NCBI GenBank assembly: GCA_026706895.1
Contig: JAPOXW010000027.1
Location: forward strand, 8,373 to 72,372
Length of the DNA stretch: 64,000 nt
Origin: Gammaproteobacteria bacterium
Lineage (GTDB): Bacteria; Pseudomonadota; Gammaproteobacteria; Poriferisulfidales; Poriferisulfidaceae
Direction of reading: 5' to 3'
Shown one piece after another: positions 30,173 through 37,259 of this stretch; positions within the stretch are counted from its first letter, which is position 1, and every line of letters starts with the position of its first letter. The notes beneath the pieces are model-generated. The model was not told where the DNA came from, ran no database searches, and worked only from the letters and a program-made list of their open reading frames with translations. Both the position numbers and the translations under genes were made by a program.

Positions 30173-30260
<88 letters not shown>

Positions 30261-30384
30261 CTCGGCACCATCGCTCCAAAACCAGAAGGAAAGACCGGGC
30301 AATGCCCGACCCAGCCCAGTCTGCAAGGCAGTGTGTCCGCCTGCCTGACCCAACGCTTTCCGTCAAGACTCCCGTCTCACCGGA

Positions 30385-32843: not shown

Positions 32844-33656
32844 ATGCGCCTTACCTTCACTTTCGTCTTGAGCTGTCTGGCTTTTCCTTCCGCAATGGCG
32901 GAATCGGAATTCCTGACCATCGCATCCACTACTTCGACGGATCACTCCGGCCTGTACGATTACCTGTTGCCGATCTACGAGAAGAAATCCGGCGTAAGTT
33001 TCCGGGTTGTGGCCGTCGGTACCGGACAGGCCATCCGCAATGCGATGCGGGGAGATGCCGACTTGCTGATCGTTCACCACCGCGAATCAGAAGAACGTTT
33101 CGTCGCCGAAGGCTATGGATTGCAACGGGATGACCTGATGTACAACGAGTTCATGCTGATCGGGCCACGCGAAGATCCCGCAAAGGTTGCAGAAGTAGAT
33201 GATATTGCAGAAGCTTTCCGTCGCATCTCGCGCTCAGGCGTTACCTTCATCTCTCGCGGCGACGACAGCGGAACCCACAAGCGTGAACTGGAACTATGGG
33301 CAAAAGCGGGCATTCAGGTCCGCCCCGCCAGCGGCGACTGGTACTGGGAGGCCGGAGCCGGCATGGGGCCCACCCTGAACACGGCCGCCGCACGCAATGC
33401 CTATGTGCTGAGCGATGGCGCCACCTGGGCCGCGTTTGGCAACCGGCAGGATTTGGTGGTGGTGTACCAGGACGACCCGCTGCTGCACAACCAGTACGGA
33501 CTCATCGTGGTCAATCCCGACCGTCACCCGCACGTGAAGGGACAGCAGGCGCAGGAATTCGCAGAGTGGCTACTGTCCGAAGAAGGGCAGCAAGCAATCG
33601 CGGCTTTCGAGATCAACGGAAAACGGGTATTTTCTCCAAACGCCAAACCACGTTGA
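32844..33656 (+). CDS. periplasmic substrate-binding protein, tungstate/sulfate-type (TupA/WtpA-like, PBP_like_2)
   Basis: Signal peptide; SISTSTDxSGLYDYL...GTGQAIxxAxxGDADLLxVH pattern of TupA family. Confidence 0.65.
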   Translation: MRLTFTFVLSCLAFPSAMAESEFLTIASTTSTDHSGLYDYLLPIYEKKSGVSFRVVAVGTGQAIRNAMRGDADLLIVHHRESEERFVAEGYGLQRDDLMYNEFMLIGPREDPAKVAEVDDIAEAFRRISRSGVTFISRGDDSGTHKRELELWAKAGIQVRPASGDWYWEAGAGMGPTLNTAAARNAYVLSDGATWAAFGNRQDLVVVYQDDPLLHNQYGLIVVNPDRHPHVKGQQAQEFAEWLLSEEGQQAIAAFEINGKRVFSPNAKPR

Positions 33657-33733
33657 ATCCTCGATTTCTCCTAATCTTGGAAAATTAATAAATTCTGGCT
33701 TATATTCGTAAAATGAATATTTATTGTTGAATA

Positions 33734-33771
33734 ATCTATTTCATACTGTAAAAATATAAATTGAAATAGAT
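33734..33771. promoter_or_regulatory. 10-bp perfect inverted repeat ATCTATTTCA-N18-TGAAATAGAT in AT-rich region 45-80 nt upstream of ATPase gene; candidate operator
   Basis: Read directly from sequence. Confidence 0.4.
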
Positions 33772-33813
33772 ATTATGATAAAATAACGTCGCCTGTTGTG
33801 CGGGAGACGTTTC

Positions 33814-35058
33814 ATGTTGTATAAATTAGAAATTGAAAATTTCCTGTGCTTTCGGGAACGCCAGGTCATTGATTTGACTGCTTCAAAAACGGCGGCTTTG
33901 GATGAAGCCCATTTCGCCTCGATTTTTTCGGGTGCGGCGGTTAAGGCTCCAAAAACTGTCTTTATCTATGGTGCGAACGCCTCGGGCAAATCCACGGTGG
34001 TCAAGGCCATGTCCTTGCTGGCGTACTTCGTTACCAACAGTTATGATGACAGAAATGCCGCCGGGATTATCTGCCAGCCGTTCGCGAGCAGCGACATGCT
34101 GGAAAAACCGGTGCGCCTAGCGGTCGAATTTGGCGATGTGATGAATCCATCCCTTGAAATCGATCCAAAAGGGACTCACAGCAACGTAACCTATGGGGCT
34201 TGGCGATACGAACTCGAATTGATCAGAACCAATCCTAAGACCGTATGGGTGCACATGGAAAGCCTCCGCCAGAAACCAAACGGTGCTGGCAAATGGAAAA
34301 GGGTCTTCGAGCGAAACGGAGGGAGCCTGCAGGGATCGAAAGCATTCCCTCTCAACAACCATACGCGGGAAATCGAGAAAATTCCAGCCGTTTCCAGCGT
34401 TATCAGCACACTGGCATGGTTCGAACACAAGGCATCCAAGGCACTGGCCAATGCCGCACAGGGGATTTTCAGCAATACTTTTTTGGACAAATTCGACAAT
34501 GACAGTCCCTTTTTGAAATATTGCCTGGAGTTTTATCAGGCAAATCCGGAGGCCCTGAAAAGTCTTAATCAGGAAATTCAGCGGCTTGACGTCGGAATCA
34601 GGCAGATGAGTATTTTCTCTGGTTCAACTGATTCGGATGGCCCTTTCGCTACATTCGAACACTCTGGATTGGACTCCCCCATTCTGTGGATGATGGAAAG
34701 CCAAGGAACGCGATCTTTTGTTCGGTCGTTCCCTCGAATCTATGCCGCACTTCAAGCCGGCGGTGTCGCGATTATGGACGAACTAGATCAGTCCCTCCAC
34801 CTCAATCTCCTCACTGAAATCCTGCACTGGTTTCACTCGTCGGCAGAAAACCCTGATGATGCCCAATTGTGGGCGACTTGTCATTCCGCCCCACTGATGG
34901 ATGACCTTCTGAAGGAAGAGATCATCTTTTGCGAAAAAGACTCGCATGGATGCGCGCAAGCGTACTGTCTCAAGGAAATTCAAGGGGTTCGAAGAAACGA
35001 GCGTTTCTCGAAGAAATACCTTGGCGGAGTCTATGGGGGGATTCCAAATATCGGGTAA
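33814..35058 (+). CDS. AAA_21/SMC-like ATPase (AbiLi/RloA-like) of two-gene defence module
   Basis: MLYKLEIENFLCFRE N-terminus, Walker A GANASGKST, Walker B IMDELDQSLH; GGAG RBS; visibly lower GC. Confidence 0.75.
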   Translation: MLYKLEIENFLCFRERQVIDLTASKTAALDEAHFASIFSGAAVKAPKTVFIYGANASGKSTVVKAMSLLAYFVTNSYDDRNAAGIICQPFASSDMLEKPVRLAVEFGDVMNPSLEIDPKGTHSNVTYGAWRYELELIRTNPKTVWVHMESLRQKPNGAGKWKRVFERNGGSLQGSKAFPLNNHTREIEKIPAVSSVISTLAWFEHKASKALANAAQGIFSNTFLDKFDNDSPFLKYCLEFYQANPEALKSLNQEIQRLDVGIRQMSIFSGSTDSDGPFATFEHSGLDSPILWMMESQGTRSFVRSFPRIYAALQAGGVAIMDELDQSLHLNLLTEILHWFHSSAENPDDAQLWATCHSAPLMDDLLKEEIIFCEKDSHGCAQAYCLKEIQGVRRNERFSKKYLGGVYGGIPNIG

Positions 35059-35074
35059 TTTCCCTTAGCTGAAC

Positions 35075-35623
35075 ATGCAGAAAAGAAAGCTGATCCTCCT
35101 CGGCTGCGAGGGGAAGTCCGAGCGCGCATACGCTGCTTTGTTGAACCGATTCGTGCGCGAGGCCAGCCTCCCGGTACAAATCCGATCTCTAAACTTGGAA
35201 CATGCCGGAGATCCTCTGAGTCGAGTGCAACTGTTGCTTAGAAAAACCAGAACCGACAGGAAGCAGTATCCGTGGATGGGTATTCTTTTGGATTCTGATC
35301 AGGTTCAAGGTGGACGCTCGGATTCCCGCTCCCGTGAAGCATGTCGTTTAGCAAAAGAACATGGCATCAACTTAATTTGGCAAAACCCATGCCATGAAGG
35401 ATTGCTTCTCAGACACATGCCAAGACAAGACAAAACCCAACCAGTCAACTGCATTGACGCGCAAAGGAAACTCGTCGCTATCTGGGACAAGTATCAGAAG
35501 CCCATGAACGCAAACCAACTATCCCGGCGAATCGGTCTTGAAGATGTGCAACGGGCGGCTCGCGCAGAGCTCGACCTGGGAAAACTCCTGAAAGCGACAG
35601 GACTACCTCTTTCAACTCGATAG
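35075..35623 (+). CDS. RloB-like (AbiLii/TOPRIM-like) protein
   Basis: KLILLGCEGKSERAYA N-terminal motif characteristic of RloB family; 16 nt downstream of ATPase. Confidence 0.6.
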   Translation: MQKRKLILLGCEGKSERAYAALLNRFVREASLPVQIRSLNLEHAGDPLSRVQLLLRKTRTDRKQYPWMGILLDSDQVQGGRSDSRSREACRLAKEHGINLIWQNPCHEGLLLRHMPRQDKTQPVNCIDAQRKLVAIWDKYQKPMNANQLSRRIGLEDVQRAARAELDLGKLLKATGLPLSTR

Positions 35624-35654
35624 CCCTCGCACACGACCTGTTCTCACGTTTCTT

Positions 35655-35936
35655 TCAACTCTGTGCCTCGCGCTCGCGGGCTTGAGCGATGTCGTAGCTG
35701 TTCTGCATCCTCAGTAACGTGTCTCCGGACACCCCAAACGCCTTTTCGATCCGAGTCGCCATTTCCAACGAAAGGCGCACATGCTCGTGGAACAATGCAG
35801 ACAGTGCGGGGCGCGAAACCCCAAGCATCCGCGCTGCGTCGGTTATCGACAAACCCAACGGTTCAACAATTTCGCTCTTCGCGAATTCTCCCGGATGAAC
35901 TGGGTTCTTCATGCGGATTCCATGTCCTGCGCTCAT
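35655..35936 (-). CDS. HigA-like HTH (XRE) antitoxin-family protein, orphan
   Basis: MKNPVHPGE...GLSITDAARMLGVSRPALS... HigA signature; no upstream higB (only ~50 bp to next gene). Confidence 0.65.
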   Translation of the reverse strand: MSAGHGIRMKNPVHPGEFAKSEIVEPLGLSITDAARMLGVSRPALSALFHEHVRLSLEMATRIEKAFGVSGDTLLRMQNSYDIAQAREREAQS

Positions 35937-36032
35937 GATTGCCTCGTTGCTTCTTTGGATCGCAAGGCCCCGTGTCGGCACGCAATACCCGACAAACGCC
36001 CATATGCGAACATGTTCCGAGATTTTAACCTG

Positions 36033-37259
36033 CTAGTGTGCGGGTACCCCATGCAAACGTTCTGCACGACGGCGCAACAGAGCCACGGTCGCCAGCAAAA
36101 GAATCGAAATCAGGACGAAGATCGTCGCCACCGCCAGAATGGTCGGCGAGATCTGCTCCCGGATGCCGGAGAACATTTGACGCGGGACCGTCCGCTGGGT
36201 CACGTCGCCGAGCTGCAGGATCACGACCACTTCGTCAAATGAAGTGATAAAGGCGAACAGGGCTCCGGATACCACGCCGGGAAGAATGATCGGTGTCTGT
36301 ATCTTGAAGAAAGTTCGCACCGGCGAAGCGCCGAGGCTGGTCGCCGCGCGCACCAGGTTGTGGTCGAATCCCGCCAAGGATGCTGTGACCGTAATGACCA
36401 CGAACGGAACCCCAAGCACTGCATGCGCGAAGATCAATCCGAGGTAGGTCTTCGCGAGCCCGACCTGGCTGAACGCGAAAAACAACCCGGATGCCGTAAT
36501 GACCAACGGCACCACCATCGGTGAAATCAGCAATGCCATCACGGTGCGCTTGAACGGCATTTCCGAGCGGCTGAGGCCGACCGCGGCCATCGTTCCGAGT
36601 GCCGTGGCCAAAAGGGTTGCCGGAATGCCGATGATGAAGCTGTTCTTGATGGAACGCACCCACTGCGCGTTGTTCCACATGTCGGCCCACCAGCCGATCT
36701 CCGCATCCGGCGCCACCATGCCATTGCGCACGATGTCGGCATACCAGCGCAGGCTGAAGGCATCCGCTTCCAGATTCAGCATACCGGCGGTAAAACTGAA
36801 ATACGGTTCCTGGTTGAAGGACAAGGGCACCACGACGAAGATCGGCACCACCAGGAACAGGAAAATCAGCGCGCACGCTCCGCGGAACAGGTAAAACAGG
36901 GATACTTCGCGCGGCCCGGCATACTCCGGCAGGCCCTCTCGGTAGCGCCCGGTGGCGAGCCAAGCGGATGCCGACGCCAAAACCCAGCCAAGCGCTAGCA
37001 TCAGCAAGGCGAAAGCCACGCCGTGCGTCGCGAGCCCCGCCAGCGCGAGTGCGAGCATGCAGAACGAACGCGCGACTCTCGGCGATTCGGGATGAATCGC
37101 GGCAGGAAGCGACAGCAAAGCGAACAGCAAGGCACCTGCCAGCGTGTACGGCAGCATCAACGCGGTGTCACCGTATGCGGTGAGCAGCCCGACCAGGGCA
37201 CCCGCCAGACCGCACCAGGCCGCAGCAAATCGGACCGGGGGGCGGATCGCCTCAAGCAT
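36033..37259 (-). CDS. ABC transporter permease (PotC-like) with long N-terminal hydrophobic extension
   Basis: C-terminal ~260 aa PotC-like with EAA loop; N-terminal ~140 aa extra TM segments (start uncertain). Confidence 0.7.
   Translation of the reverse strand: MLEAIRPPVRFAAAWCGLAGALVGLLTAYGDTALMLPYTLAGALLFALLSLPAAIHPESPRVARSFCMLALALAGLATHGVAFALLMLALGWVLASASAWLATGRYREGLPEYAGPREVSLFYLFRGACALIFLFLVVPIFVVVPLSFNQEPYFSFTAGMLNLEADAFSLRWYADIVRNGMVAPDAEIGWWADMWNNAQWVRSIKNSFIIGIPATLLATALGTMAAVGLSRSEMPFKRTVMALLISPMVVPLVITASGLFFAFSQVGLAKTYLGLIFAHAVLGVPFVVITVTASLAGFDHNLVRAATSLGASPVRTFFKIQTPIILPGVVSGALFAFITSFDEVVVILQLGDVTQRTVPRQMFSGIREQISPTILAVATIFVLISILLLATVALLRRRAERLHGVPAH

Follow-up and report, generated by a model that had tools for sequence, protein, structure and literature searches.

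The DNA analysed here is a 64,000-nucleotide stretch of contig JAPOXW010000027.1 (referred to as the window), assigned to a gammaproteobacterium of the family Poriferisulfidaceae. This article describes a lower-GC (guanine plus cytosine) islet of three genes at positions 33657-36032 of the window, which carries an AbiL-type gene pair related to RloA/RloB, named abiLi and abiLii, and a convergent gene for a helix-turn-helix (HTH) protein of the HigA family. The islet is located between two operons of the ATP-binding cassette (ABC) transporter type, TupA/TupB-like on one side and PotC-like on the other; these names were kept as "-like" because the scores fall below the equivalog cut-offs. GC content is 0.39-0.52 over 33600-35400 and about 0.60 in the flanks. 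A preliminary description made from the letters alone had listed an ATPase, an RloB protein, an HTH gene and an inverted repeat in a low-GC islet between two ABC loci; all of these features are present, and only small corrections to them were needed. The features of the islet are as follows.

33657-33813, plus strand: promoter and 5'-untranslated region (5'-UTR) of the AbiL operon, AT-rich (GC 0.39), which aligns over eight related loci with conserved blocks
33727-33732, plus strand: predicted -35 box, TTGAAT, at the conserved TTGTTGAAT block
33734-33771, no strand: perfect 10-bp inverted repeat, candidate operator
33785-33811, plus strand: hairpin that pairs the Shine-Dalgarno (SD) sequence, minimum free energy -16.6 kcal/mol, z -2.6
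33814-35058, plus strand: AbiLi, ABC ATPase (Rad50/SMC/PtuA-like), 414 aa
35075-35623, plus strand: AbiLii, RloB-family protein, predicted nuclease effector, 182 aa
35655-35936, minus strand: orphan HigA-family HTH protein, 93 aa, convergent with AbiLii
36008-36017, no strand: palindrome GAACATGTTC, between the stop of the Pot-like permease and the start of the HigA-like gene

The open reading frame (ORF) of the ATPase spans 33796-35058, and its actual start is the ATG at 33814, with GGGAGA ahead of it at 33802-33807. This start gives a protein of 414 aa instead of the 415 aa first reported, in agreement with gene callers on identical metagenome contigs. The protein is matched by the AbiLi profile of PADLOC (PDLC02335) at 2e-64 (215.7 bits), far better than by the AriA model (1e-20), and in Pfam by AAA_21 (4.8e-17, 63.4 bits against a cut-off of 27) as well as AAA_23 and AAA_15. 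A housekeeping identity of the RecF or SMC type was ruled out, because the matches to RecF (TIGR00611, 16.4 bits against a cut-off of 172), SMC_N and DndD are weak, far below the cut-offs and confined to the P-loop (Walker A) region. The ATPase is thus not of a housekeeping family and the second gene does have RloB similarity (48.7 bits against 31.5), the two points on which the preliminary description had made its assignment depend.

In an alignment that took in homologues down to 42% identity, the Walker A motif GANASGKST (G53-T61), the signature S296-x-G298, the Walker B residues D322-E323 and the H-loop H357 of AbiLi are invariant, and the C-terminal tail (residues 361-414) is strikingly conserved. 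The AlphaFold (AF2) model of the protein has a predicted local distance difference test score (pLDDT) of 80 and yields Foldseek matches to Rad50, SMC and PtuA at about 1e-11; PtuA is also its nearest solved relative by sequence (8ee4, 2.7e-6). The extreme C-terminus, RRNERFSKKYLGGVYGGIPNIG (aa 391-414, 34984-35058), is near-invariant down to 42% identity and yet has a pLDDT below 50, and represents a candidate partner-binding or oligomerisation peptide.

The stop codon of the ATPase at 35056-35058 is followed by a new start at 35075, so that the pair consists of two separate, co-directional ORFs with the ATPase upstream and a gap of 16 nt, replaced by a 4-nt overlap in relatives. The ORF at 35075-35623 encodes 182 aa and is recognized by the Pfam RloB family (PF13707) at 1.3e-12, 48.7 bits against the gathering cut-off of 31.5, and no AriB or DUF4435 match to it was obtained. 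Together with the PADLOC profile matches for AbiLi (2e-64) and AbiLii (8e-8), this supports the assignment proposed at the outset, a split ABC ATPase plus RloB protein of the AbiLi/AbiLii (RloA/RloB-like) kind. The RloB protein had also been regarded as unusually short, a view that does not hold: the Pfam RloB model is 195 positions long, the 33 word-indexed homologues all measure 173-204 aa (fragments aside), and HMMER, run exhaustively over 1.84 billion representatives, retrieved 1967 relatives, including 217 clusters at E<=1e-30 that are almost all 177-196 aa long. A length of 182 aa is therefore normal for this large subfamily.

The AF2 model of AbiLii (pLDDT 92) has a four-stranded β-α-β-α-β-α-β core and a helical C-terminal part. 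Its acidic residues E12, which follows strand 1, and D73-x-D75, which follows strand 3, are placed as Toprim catalytic residues are; E12, E16, D73, D75, H107, E108 and H114 are invariant or near-invariant, and the motif EGKSE mirrors the EGKTE with which the P2 Old Toprim domain begins. Foldseek of this model against the PDB returned nothing significant and a profile search of PDB sequences gave no match, while the top match among viral structures (BFVD) is a phage RloB-like protein (prob 1.00). A protein search with the P2 Old C-terminus, intended as the basis of an OLD-Toprim profile, retrieved only 5 fragments and was unusable for that. AbiLii carries Toprim-type motifs, and a Toprim fold is not statistically confirmed.

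The association of the two genes extends well beyond the window. The gene immediately downstream of the ATPase is an RloB gene in 9/9 relatives of about 40% identity and in many relatives of 24-29% identity, and the linkage is conserved from 25% to 81% identity. The window pair belongs to a compact proteobacterial subfamily with ATPases of about 400-415 aa and RloB proteins of about 180-195 aa; pairs that are 39-43% identical occur on plasmids of Rhizobium, Agrobacterium, Burkholderia and Sphingobium, annotated as "ATP-binding protein / RloB domain-containing protein". Defence-type genes are found among the neighbours of the relatives, including CHAT, NACHT, WYL-nucleotidyltransferase and GmrSD-HNH genes. 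The ratio of nonsynonymous to synonymous divergence (dN/dS) is 0.11-0.18 for AbiLi and 0.08-0.14 for AbiLii. Intact ATPase motifs, Toprim-type acidic motifs, tight linkage and purifying selection on both AbiL genes are all evident at the sequence level.

AbiL is known from abortive infection in Lactococcus and has been classed with PARIS as a system in which an ABC ATPase is paired with a TOPRIM protein (PMC11464382; PMC13064643; PMC12409363). RloB is related to OLD_TOPRIM by HHpred, and ATPase/TOPRIM pairs act as antitoxin and toxin (PMC10440598). The genes at 33814-35058 and 35075-35623 probably constitute an AbiL-type anti-phage module, for which it is proposed, by analogy with PARIS, that AbiLi holds the predicted nuclease AbiLii inactive until phage is sensed. 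In such a module an AT-rich promoter of the sigma-70 type would drive the operon, with the inverted repeat that brackets its -10 box as a possible operator. AbiLi would oligomerise and keep AbiLii inactive, as in the analogous AriA/AriB proteins of PARIS and the NetFlax ATPase/TOPRIM toxin-antitoxin pairs. PARIS was taken as the model for sequestration and release because no other split system of this kind has a solved mechanism (PMC11464382; PMC12409363). A phage-derived cue sensed by AbiLi and coupled to ATP binding or hydrolysis would then release or activate AbiLii, which would cleave nucleic acid and abort the infection. There are two candidates for the substrate: tRNA, by the precedent of AriB and P2 OLD, and DNA, by that of Gabija and class 2 OLD. 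The tRNA option is attractive in view of AriB and of a recent report on P2 OLD (bioRxiv 10.64898/2026.07.10.737580), and the present data do not discriminate between the two.

Several points weigh against this assignment of function. The match of the second gene to the AbiLii profile of PADLOC is weak (8.1e-8, 31 bits), no AbiL structure was found in the PDB, and reviews up to 2026 consider that the mechanism of AbiL is still to be determined (PMC13064643). In addition, abiLii is frameshifted, truncated or fragmented in the relatives L092, L094/L095 and L090, in which AbiLi is intact. Not all relatives, then, maintain the AbiL system, and AbiLi may serve a function in the absence of the nuclease.

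With regard to known systems, the pair shares with AbiL of the Lactococcus lactis plasmid pND861 and with Campylobacter RloA/RloB the order of an AAA_15/21 ABC ATPase first and an RloB protein second, both co-directional. It differs from these founders in being distant in sequence, as a member of the compact proteobacterial subfamily, and in occupying a fixed chromosomal site in a symbiont lineage instead of a plasmid or hsd locus. PARIS (AriA/AriB) likewise combines a split ABC-ATPase sensor with a Toprim-class effector; the effector of the window, however, is RloB (PF13707) and not DUF4435/AriB, and the ATPase fits AbiLi far better than AriA. P2 Old, the class 1-2 OLD proteins and GajA of Gabija follow the same logic of ABC ATPase plus Toprim, including the arrangement of EGK(S/T)E and DxD, but there both domains belong to a single fused polypeptide whereas here they are encoded by separate genes, and AbiLii has no significant sequence or Foldseek match to them. 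Lastly, PtuA of the Septu/retron PtuA-PtuB systems, the closest solved relative of AbiLi by sequence, is among its top structural matches, while the Septu effector PtuB is an HNH nuclease and not an RloB/Toprim protein.

The distribution of the islet was followed in the lineage to which the window belongs. Sponge metagenomes contain contigs identical to the window, whose syntenic relatives include MRSX01, the Theonella symbiont TsSOB, which is listed under the genus Poriferisulfidus in Candidatus List No. 7 (PMC12451612); metagenomes of Sarcotragus, Petrosia and Aplysina supplied further syntenic contigs (PMC5099237). All sampled clade members for which enough sequence is available have the islet at this one site; a metagenome scan with the TupA-like protein turned up no empty site within the clade, and the more distant TupA-like homologues (44-54% identity) show a different gene order. 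The islet is an old, lineage-wide accessory locus of sponge-symbiont sulfur-oxidising gammaproteobacteria. Its description as a low-GC islet between two ABC operons stands, and the recent event that the word "inserted" suggests does not, since all sampled members of the symbiont clade have it at the same site.

The islet genes diverge more than their surroundings. Protein identity to the window is 86-100% for the flanks, 74-81% for AbiLi, 77-90% for AbiLii and 70-79% for HigA, and nucleotide identity falls at the islet borders (near 33650 and 36040), with an earlier onset for L087 and L092, in the 3' half of the periplasmic binding protein (PBP) gene. Between the window and L085, from the Theonella symbiont, synonymous divergence (dS) is 0.20-0.28 in the flanks, 0.87 in AbiLi and 0.91 in AbiLii, and the excess divergence is mainly synonymous. 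The dN/dS values of 0.08-0.20 across all three islet genes denote purifying selection. On these substitution patterns, the islet holds functional genes whose alleles predate the genome around them.

The individual genes do not group alike: the flank genes fall into two clades, AbiLi shows a star-like pattern at 74-83%, and the grouping of AbiLii is different again. The loci L089 and L091 are 95-100% identical except for a sharply bounded tract of 60-85% identity at L089:5300-7100 (equivalent to about 33100-34900 of the window), which takes in the TupA-like gene from the middle to its 3' end, then the promoter and almost the whole of abiLi; AbiLii and HigA remain 95-98% identical. This tract looks like a recombinational allele replacement of the sensor ATPase, and AbiLi alleles seem to undergo exchange through homologous recombination that is independent of the nuclease. 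Among 21 close AbiLi alleles, variability is concentrated in aa 76-150, 226-240 and 271-285, which are partly low-confidence loops, and residues 1-60 and 361-414 are conserved. Tentatively, and with some hesitation, the AbiLi sensor may be viewed as a swappable allele cassette at a fixed site, with old alleles (74-83% nucleotide identity, dS about 0.9) and breakpoints that fall within the TupA-like gene on one side and within the conserved 3' end of abiLi on the other. If this were correct, the hypervariable segments aa 76-150, 226-240 and 271-285 would mark the surface that senses the phage trigger, and the clade would offer a natural allelic series for how the AbiL family recognises infection.

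Two of the related loci present arrangements of their own. At L092:7119-7806, abiLii is split over two frames, as a frameshift pseudogene, beside an intact abiLi and an intact HigA-like gene. L090:1-13236 carries a 74%-identical abiLi amid transposases, RelB, HipA with an HTH gene, and an EcoRV-type restriction-modification (R-M) system; only fragments of abiLii occur there, about 800-1300 nt downstream of abiLi, with an unassigned 181-aa ORF between.

The third gene of the islet lies in an ORF at 35655-35981 on the minus strand, and the conserved start, the ATG at 35936, yields a protein of 93 aa. With 89.3 bits for TIGR02607 (cut-off 47.7), this protein is a full-core member of the HigA family. 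Along its entire length it shares 72% identity with plasmid HigA antitoxins encoded 10 nt behind a HigB of the RelE/ParE type, and it is shorter than these (93 versus 110 aa), without the C-terminal approximately 17 residues. Unlike a HigBA system it has no HigB partner and is located downstream of a transporter operon: position 36033 is the stop of the Pot-like permease, only 96 nt separate it from the HigA start, and tblastn with plasmid HigB detected no HigB or remnant in the 64-kb window or in 7 relatives. These results confirm the orphan state that had been reported for the gene. With a dN/dS of 0.08-0.20, the orphan HigA antitoxin is maintained by selection at the islet. No terminator-like site was predicted in the 31-nt gap (35624-35654) between the stops of abiLii and the HigA-like gene, so that convergent transcripts would overlap.

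An alternative to phage defence is a purely selfish toxin-antitoxin role, in which AbiLii would be a toxin and AbiLi its antitoxin, costly to lose, and the orphan HigA would serve as an anti-addiction device against incoming higBA plasmids. The validation of NetFlax ATPase/TOPRIM pairs in toxicity-neutralisation assays (PMC10440598), the retention of the pair at one chromosomal site across the clade and the 72% identity of the orphan HigA to plasmid antitoxins are in line with it. However, the founding AbiL of Lactococcus, the only one with a phenotype, gives phage resistance (Deng et al., 1999, as summarised in PMC13064643), the relatives adjoin CHAT, NACHT, WYL-nucleotidyltransferase and GmrSD-HNH genes of the defence type, the allele turnover focused on the ATPase fits arms-race or balancing dynamics better than addiction, and the supposed toxin gene was the first to be lost in several relatives. 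Such a role is unlikely as the whole explanation, and toxin-antitoxin and defence functions are not mutually exclusive.

The preliminary description had proposed that the HTH protein is a dedicated regulator of the AbiL pair, an idea that can be judged by the co-variation of the genes. The HigA-like gene is present in 5/8 syntenic loci, the relatives that have it being L087, L089, L091 and L092. In L088 it is cleanly deleted (the slot at L088:7805-7893 is empty) with AbiLi and AbiLii intact. In L085 the slot holds a Sel1-repeat gene (L085:7887-9023, minus strand), and in L094/L095, from an Aplysina metagenome, a gene for a GmrSD_N-HNH nuclease (L094:5344-6438, minus strand; PADLOC REase_II, 4e-140), next to an abiLii cut to 67 aa and a persisting AbiLi. 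Outside the clade, the gene is absent from 9/9 loci of about 40% identity, and phmmer found none beside any of 80 more distant loci. The 147 neighbour ORFs of the nine loci of about 40% identity contain only 1 HTH_3 protein, the others being heterogeneous and including integrases, Fic and PIN proteins. An HTH antitoxin beside the AbiL pair of a Lichenicola plasmid was considered and proved unrelated to the HigA-like protein of the window. As far as comparative gene content can tell, the HigA-like gene occupies a variable accessory slot and the AbiL pair does not require it. A site for its own regulation may lie closer by: the perfect 10-bp palindrome GAACATGTTC at 36008-36017, read from the sequence, has the form GAAC-N2-GTTC, which L089 and L091 retain and L088, itself without the HigA-like gene, retains in part; the palindrome may be a HigA autoregulatory site.

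The upstream region bears on the same proposal. Seven sigma-70-like sites occur in 33657-33813, against 1.8 expected, and the alignment of 8 loci points to the conserved TTGTTGAAT block, which places the -35 box TTGAAT at 33727-33732. The form TTG(A/T)AT-N17-TATAAT is found in L087, L092 and L090, and AAAAAT stands at the aligned -10 position of the window; the predicted -10 element is accordingly put at about 33749-33760, with AAAAAT after a 17-nt spacer. The inverted repeat ATCTATTTCA-N18-TGAAATAGAT is perfect over 10 bp, and its arms (33734-33743 and 33762-33771) fall in the promoter spacer and at about +1, bracketing the predicted -10. A perfect inverted repeat of at least 10 bp arose in 28/2000 dinucleotide-preserving shuffles of the 157-nt intergenic region, and its occurrence by chance is moderately unlikely, not overwhelmingly so. 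Conservation is limited to the core TTTCA...TGAAA, which is equally kept in L085, L088 and L090, all without the HTH gene; L092 has a 9-bp inverted repeat at the same place. From its operator-like position, the repeat is possibly the operator of some factor. The perfect repeat overlapping the putative promoter was thus rightly noted, and its link to the HTH protein is not upheld, given the preservation of the core in loci devoid of the gene.

A three-gene variant in which the HigA-like protein is a dedicated AbiL regulator, binds the repeat at 33734-33771 and de-represses on infection, like CapH and other defence-linked Xre proteins, would account for a repeat that brackets the predicted -10 and is rarer than chance, for the purifying selection on the HTH gene (dN/dS 0.08-0.20), for its presence in 5/8 syntenic loci and for the weak PADLOC matches to the capH and HTH_VI models (E about 0.01). 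It is nonetheless quite improbable. The gene is found in 0/9 loci of about 40% identity and in none of the loci of 24-29% identity, where the neighbour ORFs are heterogeneous; L088, which has lost it, keeps AbiLi, AbiLii and the repeat core, and L085 and L090 keep the core too. Moreover, the nearest annotated relatives (72%) are bona fide higBA antitoxins with a different-looking operator, and a simple HTH dimer would not typically have its arms spaced 18 nt apart (about 28 bp between centres). Since the HigA-like gene does not co-vary with the AbiL pair and the core persists without it, it is regarded as an accessory neighbour and not as a demonstrated regulator. For the same reasons, and with an RloB protein of normal length, the locus is a standard member of the family and not the variant architecture that had been suggested.

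Equally, an accessory role in R-M, as for Campylobacter rloA/rloB in type I hsd loci, or an identity as a RecF/SMC repair ATPase, suggested by the naming of RloB from hsd loci (PMC10440598) and by weak P-loop-level matches to RecF, SMC_N and DndD, is highly improbable and already contradicted by the data, as there are no R-M genes in the islet or in its Tup-like and Pot-like transporter flanks, RecF scores 16.4 bits against 172, and the repair-family matches are confined to the Walker A region.

The probable AbiL-type defence module of the window is an ordinary member of a known, mechanistically unstudied family: AbiL is already included in PADLOC and DefenseFinder, and close members of this subfamily are routinely annotated by the NCBI pipeline as "RloB domain-containing protein". 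The locus matters little in itself, and its value is as material. The clade provides numerous natural alleles of a compact pair (414 + 182 aa) in otherwise near-identical genomic backgrounds, which could help to map the ATPase surfaces that evolve with phage pressure, and the locus documents a defence/accessory hotspot in uncultured symbionts of sponges, for which an enrichment in defence features has been reported (PMC5099237). Of most interest among what remains is the evidence that recombination shuffles sensor alleles at a fixed symbiont locus.

Some minor features of the region may be added. The SD hairpin at 33785-33811 pairs the sequence GGGAGA (33802-33807) of abiLi and recurs in L085 and L088 with compensatory changes. 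L087 and L089 lack it, and a different upstream hairpin takes its place in L087 and L092. As a universal 5'-UTR feature of the family the hairpin was rejected, being common to only 3/8 lineages, with different hairpins in others. A search of Rfam over 33500-36200 gave no match even at E<=1, and the sole gathering-level Rfam match in the whole window is a tRNA gene at 30183-30267 (plus strand), which does not adjoin the islet, being situated about 3.4 kb upstream.

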